Of a DNA stretch of 51,972 nucleotides, positions 11,473 through 15,685 are shown piece after piece. The notes below the pieces were generated by a model. It made no database searches. It was given only the letters and a program-made list of their open reading frames with translations, and was not told where the DNA came from. The translations under genes were made by a program, and so were the position numbers. The stretch is from Candidatus Pacearchaeota archaeon (GTDB lineage Archaea > Nanobdellota > Nanobdellia > Pacearchaeales > GW2011-AR1), in the NCBI GenBank assembly GCA_023137045.1, contig JAGLQB010000001.1:1-51972 (forward strand), given 5' to 3'. How positions within the stretch are numbered: the stretch's first letter is position 1; the number at the start of each line of letters is the position of its first letter.

Positions 11473-12447
11473 ATGAAAAAAGTTAAAGATTTTTTATGGA
11501 AGCAGGCTATGTCTGTTGAAGAGATTGTAGATAGTTTTGGTTCTTTAGGTTATCAGGCGATTGAATTGGGGGAAGCAGCAAAGGTTGTTTTGAAAATGAA
11601 GCGTTCTGGAGCTAAAATTTTCTTGACTTTTACTTCAAATATGGTTACTTCTGGATTAAGAGGTTTTTTTGCTCAATTGTGTGAATTAAAGATACCAGAT
11701 ATTTTAGTTACAACTTCTGGTTCAATTGAAGAAGATATTATGAAATCTGTTGGAGAGGATTTTGAAATTATTAATTTTAATGCAGATGATACTGCTTTAC
11801 ATGAAAGAGGAGAGAATCGTGTTGGGAATTTGATGATTCATACTGAAAGTTATATGAAATTTGAAGATAAAATAGGAAAGTTCTTATCTGAAATTTATCA
11901 AAAAAAGAAGTCCCATGGGGATGACCCTAACGGGCCTCGAATTTGTGCTTCTGAATTGTTAAATGAAATTGGTTTGATGTTGGAAGATAAGAATTCAGTT
12001 TTATATCAGGCAGCTAAAAATAATATTCCTATTTATTGTCCTGGAATTGCAGATTCTGCTTTTGGTTTTCAGCTTTATATGTTCCAGCAAAAGCATCCTG
12101 ATTTTATTGTTGATACAATTAAAGATATGGAAAGAGTAACTGTTGATTTAAGTTTTGATGAAAAAAAAGGTTTGATTTCTTTGGGAGGAAGTATTTCAAA
12201 ACATTATGCAATTTTTTCTGCAATGTTGAGTGGGGGTTTTGATTATGCTGTTTATATGACAACAAGTCATGCATCATCTGGATCAATGAGCGGTGCTACA
12301 ACTCAGGAAGCTAAATCTTGGGGAAAATTAAAAGATGATGCACAAGCAGCGACTGTGAATGGGGACGTTACAATTACTTTTCCATTAATGATGTGTAGTG
12401 TTTTGGATAAAATGAAAAGGGAGGGATTGTTGGAAAATCGAAGCTAA
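11473..12447 (+). CDS. dys: deoxyhypusine synthase
   Basis: GYQAIELGEA, TSNMVTSGLRG, VTTSGSIEEDI and GGSISKH, at a length typical of archaeal DHS. Confidence 0.9.
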   Translation: MKKVKDFLWKQAMSVEEIVDSFGSLGYQAIELGEAAKVVLKMKRSGAKIFLTFTSNMVTSGLRGFFAQLCELKIPDILVTTSGSIEEDIMKSVGEDFEIINFNADDTALHERGENRVGNLMIHTESYMKFEDKIGKFLSEIYQKKKSHGDDPNGPRICASELLNEIGLMLEDKNSVLYQAAKNNIPIYCPGIADSAFGFQLYMFQQKHPDFIVDTIKDMERVTVDLSFDEKKGLISLGGSISKHYAIFSAMLSGGFDYAVYMTTSHASSGSMSGATTQEAKSWGKLKDDAQAATVNGDVTITFPLMMCSVLDKMKREGLLENRS

Positions 12448-12472
12448 ATTCATTCTCTCAAAAGAAAAACTT

Positions 12473-13477
12473 TTGAATCAGATTAAAATTCTTGAAGATT
12501 TGGGGTTAAAAATTTCTTATAGTTATAAAACAAACAGAGAAGTTGGAAATGTTTTGCAAGAAATTTGTGATTGCGATATTTCAATTCATGCTAAAGAAGA
12601 AATTGATATGATTAAAGATAAATCAAAAATTTGGTTTTTTATTCAGGCAGAATCTGAACAAGAACTGAAAGAGATTCTGAAAAAAGGTGTAAGGAATTTG
12701 GTTATTGATAATGAAATAGATTTAGAGAGAATTTTAAATGCAATAAAAAAAGATGGGGTTCGCATTAATCTTTCATTAAGAATGAAATTCCAGGAACATA
12801 GAATTGGTTCTGGGAAATATTTTGTTTATGGGATGAGTTCTAAAAAAGTAAATGAAATAATTAAAGATATTGAGGATAATCCTCTTATTGGCAAATTAGG
12901 AATTCATATTCATAGAAAATCTCAGAATACAAGTGAGTGGGAAATTAAAGATGAAATTGAAGACTCTTTAACAAAGGAGAGTTTGGAAAGAATTAATTTT
13001 TTTAATTTTGGGGGGGGCCTCCCAACTGAATATAGAAGCTACATCTCAAAAATTCTGCCGTATATTTTTGAAAAGATAATCAATGCAAAAGAATTTCTTA
13101 AACAGCACGAAATTGAATCTTATATTGAGCCAGGAAGATTTTTAGCAGGACCTTGTATAAAGCTTCAAACAGAAATCATCCAAATTTATGATGGAAATCT
13201 TATTCTTAATACCACAGTATATAATTGTGCATTGGATGCGGTATTATTGGATATGAGAATGTTAGTGGAAAAAGAGTTGAACGAGTCTGAAGGTGGAAAA
13301 TATTATTTGCTTAAGGGAAATAGCCCAACAAGAGATGATATTTTTAGATACAAAGTTAAATTGCAAAATCCCCAAGTTGGAGATAGAATTATTTTCTTAA
13401 ATGCTGGTGCGTATAATTATACAACAGATTTTTTTGGGTACAAGAAGTTGAAAACTGAAATTAAAGAAAATTTTTGA
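12473..13477 (+). CDS. PLP-dependent Orn/DAP/Arg decarboxylase-fold enzyme (group IV), short form
   Basis: YSYKTN (PLP lysine), FNFGGGLP, YIEPGRFLAGP and a C-x-x-D segment. It has a TTG start in the ORF track and lies immediately downstream of dys. Confidence 0.75.
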   Translation: MNQIKILEDLGLKISYSYKTNREVGNVLQEICDCDISIHAKEEIDMIKDKSKIWFFIQAESEQELKEILKKGVRNLVIDNEIDLERILNAIKKDGVRINLSLRMKFQEHRIGSGKYFVYGMSSKKVNEIIKDIEDNPLIGKLGIHIHRKSQNTSEWEIKDEIEDSLTKESLERINFFNFGGGLPTEYRSYISKILPYIFEKIINAKEFLKQHEIESYIEPGRFLAGPCIKLQTEIIQIYDGNLILNTTVYNCALDAVLLDMRMLVEKELNESEGGKYYLLKGNSPTRDDIFRYKVKLQNPQVGDRIIFLNAGAYNYTTDFFGYKKLKTEIKENF

Positions 13478-13522
13478 TTAATTTAGGTAAAAATTTATAT
13501 ATCTGAAGCAATTTTTACTTTT

Positions 13523-14596
13523 ATGCAAGAAATATTGAATGGAATTTCCAAAAAAATTGCAAGTAAGGATAAAGATGATTTTATTAATGTTCTAAAAATG
13601 TTTTCTCCCGGAACTTCTATTCGTTCTGCTCTTGATGATATTTTAAGAGCTAGGATGGGCGCGTTAATTGCAATTGATGCCCCAGAACTTTCTAAAATTC
13701 TTGAAGGAGGTTTTAAAGTTAATTGCAAATTTAGTTCCCAAAAACTTGTAGAACTTGCTAAGATGGATGGTGCGATTATTCTTTCAAAGGACTTAAAAAA
13801 AATTCTATATGCAAATACCCTTCTTTTTCCAAGTATTAGTATATCAACAAAGGAAACAGGGACAAGACATAAAGCGGCAGAAAGAACTGCGAACCAAATA
13901 AAGACGATTGTTATTGCTGTGTCTGAAAGAAAAAATAAAATTACTATTTATTACAAACATGTAAAGTATGAATTAGAAATAAGTTCAGAAGTTTTAAGAA
14001 GGGCTGCGGAAACCTTACAAATTTTAGAAAAGCAAAAGGATATCCTTAACGATATAATGATTAATATTAATATCTTGGAAATAAATAATCTAGTAACAAT
14101 AAGTGATGTTTGCGAAGTTTTACAAAGGATGGAGATGATAAGGAGGATTTCAGATGTGGTTAAAAGATATTTAGTTGAGTTAGGTAAAGAAGGAAATATT
14201 ATGAGTATGAGACTAAAGGAATTGACAAAGAATCTTAATAAAGAAAGACAAATGGTATTAATGGATTATTTTCAATCAAAATATTCCCATCCAGATAATA
14301 TCCTTAAAAATATTGATTTTGATACATTGCTCGAGGTTTCCAATCTTTCAAAAATTCTTTTTGAGGAAGTTCATGATAAATCAATTTTTCCAAGAGGTAT
14401 AAGGATTTTAAGTAAAACAAATCTGTCTAGTAAGGATATTAAATCTTTAATAAACAATTTTAAAGTTTTTAATCAAATTTTTAATGCAGAGGTGGATTCT
14501 TTGATGAATGTCCTTAAAAATAAAGATGTAGTTAATTCCTTGGTTCAAGATTTGGATGTTTTAAAAGAAAAAATTTTGATAGGAAAAAAATTTTGA
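13523..14596 (+). CDS. disA: DisA-type diadenylate cyclase (DAC domain + helical linker + HhH-like C-terminus)
   Basis: FSPGTSIRSALDDILRARMGALIAI, AKMDGAIILSKDLKKILYANTLL, TGTRHKAAERTA and VIAVSERKNKITIYY. The 357-aa length and domain order match bacterial DisA. Confidence 0.85.
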   Translation: MQEILNGISKKIASKDKDDFINVLKMFSPGTSIRSALDDILRARMGALIAIDAPELSKILEGGFKVNCKFSSQKLVELAKMDGAIILSKDLKKILYANTLLFPSISISTKETGTRHKAAERTANQIKTIVIAVSERKNKITIYYKHVKYELEISSEVLRRAAETLQILEKQKDILNDIMININILEINNLVTISDVCEVLQRMEMIRRISDVVKRYLVELGKEGNIMSMRLKELTKNLNKERQMVLMDYFQSKYSHPDNILKNIDFDTLLEVSNLSKILFEEVHDKSIFPRGIRILSKTNLSSKDIKSLINNFKVFNQIFNAEVDSLMNVLKNKDVVNSLVQDLDVLKEKILIGKKF

Positions 14597-14641
14597 TAGA
14601 ATTTGCATAAGACTTATATATTAATAATTTTCACTTTAATC

Positions 14642-15685
14642 ATGTTAACTAAAAAACAAATAGATGAAATTAGGCAGCATCTTGATAAAGCTCAAAATCC
14701 AGTATTCTTTTTTGATAATGATCCTGATGGTCTTTGTTCATTTCTTTTATTACAAAGATACATTGAAAGAGGAAAAGGAGTACCAATTAAATCATTCCCA
14801 GAATTAACAGAAGATTATTTTAGGAAGGTTAATGAATTAAATGCAGACTATATTTTTATTTTAGATAAGCCAGTGGTTTCCCAAGAATTTTTTAAAAGAG
14901 TTGAGGAAATTAATATGCCAATAGTTTGGATAGACCATCACACTATAGACAAAAAACAGATTCCAGATTTTGTGCATTATTATAATCCTTTATTTAACAA
15001 AGACAAACATAATGAACCTGTGACTGTTCTTTGTCAACAGATAAATAATAACAAAAAAGATTTATGGCTCGCAGTAGTTGGAGGTATTTCAGACAAATTT
15101 GTGCCAGATTTTTATTCTGATTTTGAAAAAAGTTATCCTGAATTGTCAATTAAGTCAGAAAGTGCTTTTGAGATTTTTTATAATTCTCAAATTGGAAAGA
15201 TTGTAAAATTATTTAGTTTTGCGTTGAAAGACAAAACAACCAATGTGATAAATATGTTGAAATTTTTAATGAAAGTTAAAACTCCTTACGAAGTTTTGGA
15301 AAAAACCAGCAAGAATTATACAATGCATGAACGATTTGACCAGATTGATAGAAGATACCAGAAATTATTAATTAAAGCAGAAGAAATTTCAGTAGATTCA
15401 GAAAAAGTTTTGTTTTTTCAATATGGAGGTGATATGAGTATAAGCAGTGATTTAGCAAATGAATTGAATTATAGATTTCCAGAGAAAATTATCGTAGTTC
15501 TTTATTTCAAAGGGATAAAAGCAAATATTTCTGTTAGAGGCAAAAAGATAAAAGACAAAATTTTGGAAGCCATTAAAAATTTGGAAGGGGCTACAGGTGG
15601 TGGGCATGAAGATGCAGTTGGAGCACAAATTAATGTAGAAGATATAGAAAAATTCCGAGAGAAGCTTCTTGAGTTGGTGGAATAA
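14642..15685 (+). CDS. DHH/DHHA1-family phosphoesterase
   Basis: FFFDNDPDGLCS (motif I), FILDKP, WIDHHT (DHH) and GGGHEDAVGA (DHHA1). The ATG at 14642 is preferred over the TTG at 14603. Confidence 0.8.
   Translation: MLTKKQIDEIRQHLDKAQNPVFFFDNDPDGLCSFLLLQRYIERGKGVPIKSFPELTEDYFRKVNELNADYIFILDKPVVSQEFFKRVEEINMPIVWIDHHTIDKKQIPDFVHYYNPLFNKDKHNEPVTVLCQQINNNKKDLWLAVVGGISDKFVPDFYSDFEKSYPELSIKSESAFEIFYNSQIGKIVKLFSFALKDKTTNVINMLKFLMKVKTPYEVLEKTSKNYTMHERFDQIDRRYQKLLIKAEEISVDSEKVLFFQYGGDMSISSDLANELNYRFPEKIIVVLYFKGIKANISVRGKKIKDKILEAIKNLEGATGGGHEDAVGAQINVEDIEKFREKLLELVE

Follow-up and report, generated by a model that had tools for sequence, protein, structure and literature searches.

The stretch of DNA considered here (the window, 51,972 nt, contig JAGLQB010000001.1 of the assembly GCA_023137045.1, Candidatus Pacearchaeota archaeon) contains two adjacent genes on the forward strand: disA, for a diadenylate cyclase, and a gene for a DHH/DHHA1 phosphoesterase (the DHH gene and DHH protein below). 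Both open reading frames (ORFs) were confirmed, at positions 13523-14596 and 14603-15685. They belong to a genome of 625 kb, 82% complete, with DNA of about 30% GC. The archaeal setting is supported by the neighbouring genes, which are archaeal in type (deoxyhypusine synthase (DHS), GatD, ProRS with an archaeal C-terminal domain, and L15e), and by the source names of the close homologs of both proteins (Pacearchaeota or Nanoarchaeota archaeon). A preliminary description of the locus presented the pair as a self-contained module for the synthesis and degradation of cyclic di-adenosine monophosphate (c-di-AMP). We favour, with fair confidence, a different reading: disA was inserted upstream of a pre-existing, class-wide housekeeping phosphoesterase with a RecJ core, and the pair is not a dedicated module that evolved together. 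Two sets of genomes were compared, many of them incomplete metagenome-assembled genomes (MAGs): 41 relatives from the same family or order as the window's genome, and a phylum-wide sample of 201 genomes, all of one class (the window's own and 200 others at least 93% complete).

The upstream protein was originally assigned to DisA over its whole architecture, with four motif strings quoted in support, and this is borne out. The strings (GALIAI, DGAIILS, TGTRHKAAER and VSERKNKITIYY) are all found in the ORF. The DAC domain occupies approximately residues 35-145 (DGA at 82-84, RHK at 115-117), a helical DisA-linker follows at about 152-279, and the protein ends in a degenerate HhH-like helical bundle at about 290-357. 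The Pfam scores are 90 bits for DAC (PF02457) and 110 bits for DisA-linker (PF10635), and the NCBIfam DisA equivalog NF010009 (PRK13482) gives 339 bits, well above its cut-off of 201; the CdaA, CdaS, CdaM and DacZ models give only 20-49 bits with the same protein. The sequence matches Thermotoga maritima DisA (3C1Y) at E 2e-60. The AlphaFold2 model (pLDDT 85.4) aligns with the solved DisA structures over 348 columns with 36% identity (E 1e-27), and the alignment to 3C1Y, 9Y4S and 7Y0D covers the full length of the fold. Judged by its profile scores and modelled fold, the product is a genuine DisA-family diadenylate cyclase; its gene is the sole DAC-domain gene in this genome.

The likeness to bacterial DisA (T. 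maritima TM0200, and the Mycobacterium tuberculosis and M. smegmatis proteins) covers the DAC domain with its DGA motif, the helical linker and the C-terminal helical domain. Apart from the archaeal host, the partner gene and the c-di-AMP targets not detected here, the differences concern two parts of the protein. Among the archaeal orthologs the DGA motif is invariant and ETGTRHKAAER is conserved, but the position occupied by RHR in the bacterial proteins reads RHK here and in most orthologs (RHR in loci L002 and L003, RHQ in L005 and L020). At the end noted previously as HhH-like, a helical bundle is predicted at pLDDT of about 90 and aligns with DisA structures; the canonical G-I-G hairpins, however, are lost in the window protein and in most of the clade, and GIGEKKA is kept only in the lineage of L012 and L020.

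Two observations on cyclases of the relatives may be mentioned here. A second, small DAC protein (about 195-240 aa, with DGA, TRHS and a hydrophobic C-terminal tail) occurs in 11 of the 41 relatives, nine of which have DisA as well (L052:1390-1977 in G016:C1; similar ORFs in G001, G014, G015, G019, G021, G026, G032, G034, G037 and G039); it was not found in the window's genome. In one relative, disA is cut by an in-frame TAA into ORFs of 169 and 191 aa (L013:1417-2544, G001:C8), with the DHH gene downstream intact; this is possibly a snapshot of DisA decay.

Full DisA above the curated cut-off is present in 22 of the 41 relatives, in several families, and in six of the 201 phylum-wide genomes (five in the window's family and one in another family). 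At E<=1e-30, an exhaustive search of 1.84 billion representatives returned 215 for DisA. A tree was built of 130 sequences, and in it a branch with SH-aLRT support of 100, the deepest of this unrooted tree, separates all 19 archaeal loci and 22 further representatives from 89 others, including T. maritima. On the archaeal side, the basal members have archaeal neighbourhoods containing L15e, Nre and archaeal ProRS, and the subclades track the taxonomic families. The nearest member across the branch has RadA/Sms immediately upstream, i.e., the classic bacterial radA-disA arrangement. The archaeal proteins are thus shown to be one monophyletic clade of the Pacearchaeota type within DPANN, separate from the bacterial radA-linked DisA, inherited mostly vertically within one order and often lost.

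The preliminary description called the arrangement unusual and suspected horizontal acquisition. DisA is indeed listed as a bacterial cyclase class, the archaeal classes being DacV-DacZ (PMC6741144), but the arrangement is not peculiar to this genome and is a trait of the order. A recent transfer into this particular genome is ruled out by the presence of DisA in 22 of the 41 relatives and by the agreement of the clade with taxonomic families. A single old acquisition, with vertical descent and frequent loss afterwards, is plausible because all DisA of the Pacearchaeota type lie on one side of the branch mentioned. Its direction and donor are read from the distribution only, because the tree is unrooted. 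In the searchable literature, to which the Galperin 2023 DAC catalogue does not belong, no paper linking DisA or c-di-AMP with DPANN, Pacearchaeota or Woesearchaeota was found; one literature survey table counts a DisA in a gut Halobacteriota species.

Two further DisA loci stand somewhat apart. A second, long-branched archaeal lineage (L049:6001-7131, GCA_015657875.1, whose cluster includes 'Candidatus ainarchaeum sp.') lacks a DHH neighbour and falls outside the Pacearchaeota-type clade. The only DisA outside the window's family in the phylum-wide sample (G193, L051:2601-5802, G193:C1) is flanked by LAGLIDADG and reverse-transcriptase ORFs; it nests in the DisA lineage of another family, which suggests lateral movement within the class.

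As for the downstream gene, a DHH/DHHA1 protein with DNDPDG, DHH and GGGH does follow disA, as was described, but the gap of six nucleotides reported between the two genes probably does not hold. The orthologs align from the residue equivalent to M14; because they begin there and because a TATA-like box lies downstream of the TTG at 14603, the start is probably the ATG at 14642, which gives 347 aa and a gap of 45 nt from the disA stop. Between 16 and 36 nt upstream of the DHH start, a TATA-like box was found in 16 of 20 orthologs from DisA-less genomes and in 10 of 20 that are linked to disA (the window's among them), the background being 12.5%. The DHH gene thus appears usually to have its own promoter; the boxes are candidates obtained as pattern matches in AT-rich DNA, and scans for sigma-70 promoters and terminators carry no information in an archaeon. 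The features are collected in the table.

Features of the disA-DHH locus, in positions of the window
Feature	Position	Strand	Remarks
TATA-like box TTTATATA	13494-13501	+	Possible archaeal promoter, 22 nt before the disA ATG; read from sequence
disA, DisA-family diadenylate cyclase, 357 aa	13523-14596	+	Pfam, NCBIfam, PDB match, AlphaFold2 fold
Possible 13-codon N-terminal extension of DHH (TTG start at 14603)	14603-14641	+	Probably untranslated intergenic DNA
TATA-like box TTATATAT	14614-14621	+	20 nt upstream of the DHH ATG 14642; candidate own promoter
Minimal RecJ-core-like DHH/DHHA1 phosphoesterase, 347 aa	14642-15685	+	Metal-binding motifs all intact

The protein passes the Pfam DHHA1 threshold (PF02272, 39.6 bits) and falls just below that of DHH (PF01368, 26.7 bits against a cut-off of 28.1; 28.6 bits in the genome search). 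Motifs I-IV of the DHH superfamily (DxD, D, DHH, D) and the GGGH of DHHA1 are all present, and in 30 homologs the residues D25, D27, D29, D75, D98-H99-H100, D151 and G319-G321-H322 are invariant; the phosphoesterase is of the Mn/Mg type. In the AlphaFold model (pLDDT 94.3, pTM 0.90) the DHH domain takes up residues 1-220, a 28-residue linker helix 223-250, and DHHA1 255-347, where the protein ends.

As to the kind of phosphoesterase, the NCBIfam matches of the 30 members are of the RecJ type only (recJ 30/30, RecJ_archaeal 30/30, RecJ_Meth 21, HAN 7, GAN 2), all of them far below the cut-offs: for the window protein, 49 bits against 397 for bacterial RecJ (TIGR00644), and about 40 bits against 360 and 850 for the archaeal RecJ/GAN models NF053576 and NF053575. 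No NrnA/GdpP-type NCBIfam match appeared in these members at E up to 10, the presence of NrnA-type models in NCBIfam being unconfirmed. The only PDB sequence matches are Methanothermobacter thermautotrophicus RecJ-Cdc45 and Pyrococcus furiosus RecJ. The top Foldseek match is the archaeal RecJ-Cdc45 7BJQ, bound to single-stranded DNA (E 1e-17, TMq 0.73), followed by PfuRecJ, GAN and bacterial RecJ cores (TMq 0.64-0.69), MjRecJ2, and the methanogen pAp phosphatase 8A8K (TMt 0.68); NrnA/Pde2-type enzymes match at E of about 1e-9 with TMq 0.42-0.52.

The protein is nevertheless not the GAN/RecJ replication nuclease. That assignment is ruled out by the low scores and because contig 21 encodes another, canonical protein of the RecJ/GAN type (445 aa, L045:1049-2386; 326 bits with RecJ_archaeal against the cut-off of 360, and 192 with the other model). 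These two are the only DHH proteins in the window's genome. Assignment to the NrnA/GdpP type did not hold either, the closest relatives in sequence and fold being of the RecJ type. Because of the RecJ-only model matches, the Foldseek ranking and the separate RecJ/GAN, we place the DHH protein, on its sequence and predicted fold, in an uncharacterised minimal RecJ-core subfamily, which is neither a replication nuclease nor an NrnA/GdpP-type phosphodiesterase. The preliminary description had held that firm clustering with the archaeal RecJ/GAN replication nucleases would refute its module. This came out half so: only RecJ-type models and RecJ/Cdc45 folds match, but the replication ortholog is another protein. 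A third paralog, also a minimal RecJ-like DHH/DHHA1 protein (344-351 aa, about 27% identical to the family studied), occurs in some relatives (L057:792-1826, L058:597-1652, L059:651-1685).

A comparison with the characterised members of the superfamily is useful here. The archaeal RecJ/Cdc45 types (7BJQ; P. furiosus RecJ, 5X4H; Thermococcus kodakarensis GAN, 5GHT; Methanocaldococcus jannaschii RecJ2) have the same DHH domain, long linker helix and DHHA1, share the DxDxDG-type motif I, and are the best fold matches and the only hidden Markov model (HMM) matches; the window protein is about 100 residues shorter than these and shows no sign of a GINS or replication context. The NrnA/DhhP/Pde2/CnpB (Rv2837c) and GdpP enzymes share the superfamily, the stand-alone two-domain layout of about 320-350 aa, and the DHH and GGGH motifs; among DHH enzymes they provide the known precedent for action on c-di-AMP. 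The window protein differs from them in having motif I in the RecJ order, a weaker fold match, no HMM match, and a distribution that does not track DAC genes. The archaeal RecJ-derived pAp phosphatases (Methanothermococcus thermolithotrophicus MtPAPP, 8A8K; Pyrococcus yayanosii pApase) are of similar size, with the same succession of DHH, helical linker and DHHA1 and 17-18% identity, but without HMM-detectable sequence similarity; their neighbours are sulfate-assimilation genes, whereas those of the window gene are housekeeping genes (L15e, ProRS, DHS). MtPAPP, called an 'exonuclease-derived' pAp phosphatase, is an example of a RecJ-like core with a small nucleotide as its substrate (PMC10322725).

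The RecJ-like character invites the proposal of a module for DNA integrity, in which DisA would monitor DNA and work with a RecJ-like nuclease on single-stranded ends or stalled forks, c-di-AMP being the read-out; the pair would then be the archaeal counterpart of radA-disA. The proposal draws on the RecJ-only model matches and on the best fold match being bound to single-stranded DNA, and in bacteria disA has a genetic link to radA, a gene of DNA repair. This typical bacterial partner, named in the preliminary description, was not found here in a search for radA/sms; the nearest bacterial relative has radA directly upstream. It also fits that no RCK_C, PstA/DarA or ydaO riboswitch was detected in the DisA-bearing genomes searched. 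The canonical DNA-binding HhH hairpins, however, are lost in the window protein and most of the clade; the DHH gene belongs to the core irrespective of DisA, and the genome already has a canonical RecJ/GAN. We consider this proposal rather improbable.

The distribution of the DHH gene was the main test of the module. Of the 41 relatives, 39 have an ortholog (E<1e-90), and only 24 have any DAC domain above the cut-off; 16 relatives keep the DHH gene without one, and two of these are 91-92% complete. In the phylum-wide sample a full-length ortholog, nearly always in a single copy, is found in 190 of the 201 genomes, against six with DisA. On the DHH tree the presence of DisA requires at least 11 changes (at least four of them forced by well-supported branches) and is no more clustered than shuffled labels, and the disA-adjacent copies form no subclade of their own. 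In one DisA-less relative (G007) the order of genes is that of the window (DHS, ODC-like, DHH, and ProRS on the opposite strand) minus disA, so that DHH abuts the ODC-like gene; the loci of G010, G015 and G020 resemble it. The gene context in DisA-less genomes (L15e, DHS, ODC-like, ProRS) offered no functional clue. Because of this disparity in distribution, the persistence of the gene in 16 relatives without DAC and the lack of a DisA-specific subclade, the DHH protein is not a DisA-specific partner. We read it, from these comparisons of sequences, as a housekeeping RecJ-core phosphoesterase which is not specialised where DisA is present.

The claim of a self-contained synthesis-and-degradation module fails on the same grounds. 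Taken as a rival reading, in which the degradation of c-di-AMP or pApA would be the principal function of the DHH protein wherever DisA is present, the module deserves consideration, and we regard it as doubtful. In its favour, the genes were adjacent ancestrally and mostly still are, with tight junctions (see below), the catalytic motifs of the DHH protein are intact, and bacterial stand-alone DHH/DHHA1 enzymes of similar size degrade c-di-AMP (PMC11229311; PMC8268124); the archaeal c-di-AMP phosphodiesterase is not known (PMC10249747). In near-complete DisA genomes, moreover, no PgpH, GdpP or (the window's own genome excepted) AtaC-type enzyme was found. Against this are the distribution just described and the RecJ-like sequence and fold, which are not those of NrnA or GdpP. 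The characterised comparators also argue otherwise: the RecJ of Deinococcus radiodurans is reported as inactive on c-di-AMP and its NrnA-like paralog as active (PMC11229311), and the long-helix archaeal pApase of P. yayanosii acts specifically on pAp, leaving both c-di-AMP and pApA uncut (PMC8268124).

The remaining parts of a c-di-AMP circuit were searched for as well. RCK_C/TrkA_C, PstA/DarA (CdAMP_rec) and Sms-type RadA were not found in the window's own genome. Another five genomes with DisA, each at least 91% complete, gave no RCK_C. No PgpH-type (7TMR-HD) domain and no ydaO c-di-AMP riboswitch were found in the window's own genome or in four others with DisA that are at least 98% complete. 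Because no canonical c-di-AMP targets were found, an osmotic role would be without its usual parts. An ORF of the Phosphodiest family (PF01663, the family of AtaC; about 396 aa) is present in the window's own genome only (contig 48, G000:C48:428-1243) and is absent from the four relatives at least 98% complete; going by its family, it could be an alternative candidate c-di-AMP phosphodiesterase. With this ORF set aside, elimination would leave the DHH-family proteins as the sole representatives, in these genomes, of a known c-di-AMP phosphodiesterase superfamily. This is the chief argument left for a secondary role of the DHH protein in c-di-AMP or pApA turnover, which is possible because no other known type of phosphodiesterase was found.

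The association of the two genes is itself borne out. A DHH ortholog (43-67% identity) lies directly downstream of disA on the same strand in 19 of 20 loci of the relatives, and G016 has the arrangement too; altogether the synteny is kept in 20 of the 22 DisA-bearing relatives. The junctions span -41 to +156 nt, several overlapping or being shorter than 10 nt, and the genes upstream of disA vary by locus (ODC-like, DHS-like, L15e or unrelated ORFs). The pairwise distances of DisA and DHH correlate (r = 0.72; Mantel, 0 of 2000). In the basal members of the archaeal clade the DHH gene adjoins disA or lies 1.1 kb away, and the pair is kept down to about 36% DisA identity. The adjacency is shown to be ancestral to the archaeal DisA clade and lost about three times, because the unlinked genomes fall in three places on the DisA tree: a four-genome subclade (SH-aLRT 100), G125 and G193. 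In two lineages an ORF of 246-247 aa stands between the genes (L046:7523-8263, TrmB-family; L050:2039-2782, no Pfam match).

Such a record might be produced without any functional coupling, if chance had placed disA before a stable core gene and the two had simply been inherited side by side since. The frequent TATA-like boxes of the DHH gene, the window's included, accord with this, as do the many clean deletions of disA that left the DHH gene behind, the roughly threefold loss of adjacency, and the extra ORF in two lineages. It is more difficult to reconcile with the pair staying together across several families while the upstream neighbours change, with linkage persisting to so low a DisA identity, and with junctions typical of co-transcribed genes. 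We think it unlikely, if slightly less so than the DNA-integrity proposal. The bacterial radA-disA operon offers a parallel, in that there too a DisA gene is kept beside a gene for a nucleic-acid-processing enzyme over long evolutionary distances; in the window, however, the partner is downstream, belongs to another superfamily (DHH, and not the RecA-like/Lon-like Sms), and is far more widespread than DisA in the lineage.

Returning to the insertion of disA before a housekeeping gene, which we prefer, the course of events can be set out as follows. After one transfer from bacteria, disA would have been inserted before the DHH gene. DisA would make c-di-AMP from two ATP, while the main job of the DHH protein would be housekeeping hydrolysis of short single-stranded nucleic acids or nucleotides, of the RecJ-like exonuclease or nanoRNase type. 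Both genes would be read in the same direction, DHH possibly from an additional promoter as well, and the linkage may have been kept through a secondary role of the DHH protein connected with DisA. As for this role, we tentatively suggest, by analogy with NrnA/CnpB-type enzymes, that the DHH protein may clear c-di-AMP and/or its linear product pApA. An action of the DHH protein together with DisA on DNA ends, in place of the bacterial partner RadA, seems to us less probable than that, and we give the same low weight to the linkage having no functional reason; some other reason is the least likely.

Several points weigh against our reading and should be stated together. The RecJ-like fold does not fix the substrate, because MtPAPP, with a similar core, acts on pAp. 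The RHK in place of RHR could alter the cyclase activity. A secondary role in turnover has against it the inactivity of D. radiodurans RecJ and of the archaeal pApase on c-di-AMP, and a role on DNA has the degenerate HhH hairpins of most of the clade. Many of the absences rest on MAGs that are 61-92% complete. Finally, the trees are quick unrooted searches with SH-aLRT support only, which do not show the direction of the transfer or the donor.

The observation is of interest in several respects. One order of ultra-small DPANN archaea has long carried a clade of DisA, a protein treated as bacterial in the searchable literature, and the ancestral position of disA in that order is before a RecJ-like DHH enzyme and not beside radA. 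The reading as synthesis plus degradation is attractive but over-simple, and is corrected here. It is conceivable, though on balance we doubt it, that the archaeal enzyme still missing for the degradation of c-di-AMP and/or pApA is this minimal RecJ-core DHH protein, which would make it a phosphodiesterase class outside the NrnA/GdpP branch; if this were true, the DisA-bearing Pacearchaeota would run a c-di-AMP circuit without any canonical receptor found. A second such variant would be a checkpoint of DNA integrity, formed in these archaea by DisA and the RecJ-like nuclease in place of radA-disA. Two genes in genomes of about 0.6 Mb make a small test system for the role and removal of c-di-AMP in archaea. 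The class-wide DHH gene deserves study for its own sake, being retained in nearly all the genomes sampled from the class.

Some minor features of the locus complete the picture. The TATA-like box before disA is a candidate promoter only, because such strings are common in DNA of 30% GC. An antisense ORF of 77 aa (window 13495-13728, reverse strand) overlaps the disA start; it is without support and was taken as spurious. Upstream of disA lies a pair of genes for DHS and an ODC-like decarboxylase (window 11473-13477), which is variably kept in the relatives: the ODC-like gene is present in the loci of G007 and G002 and missing from many others.

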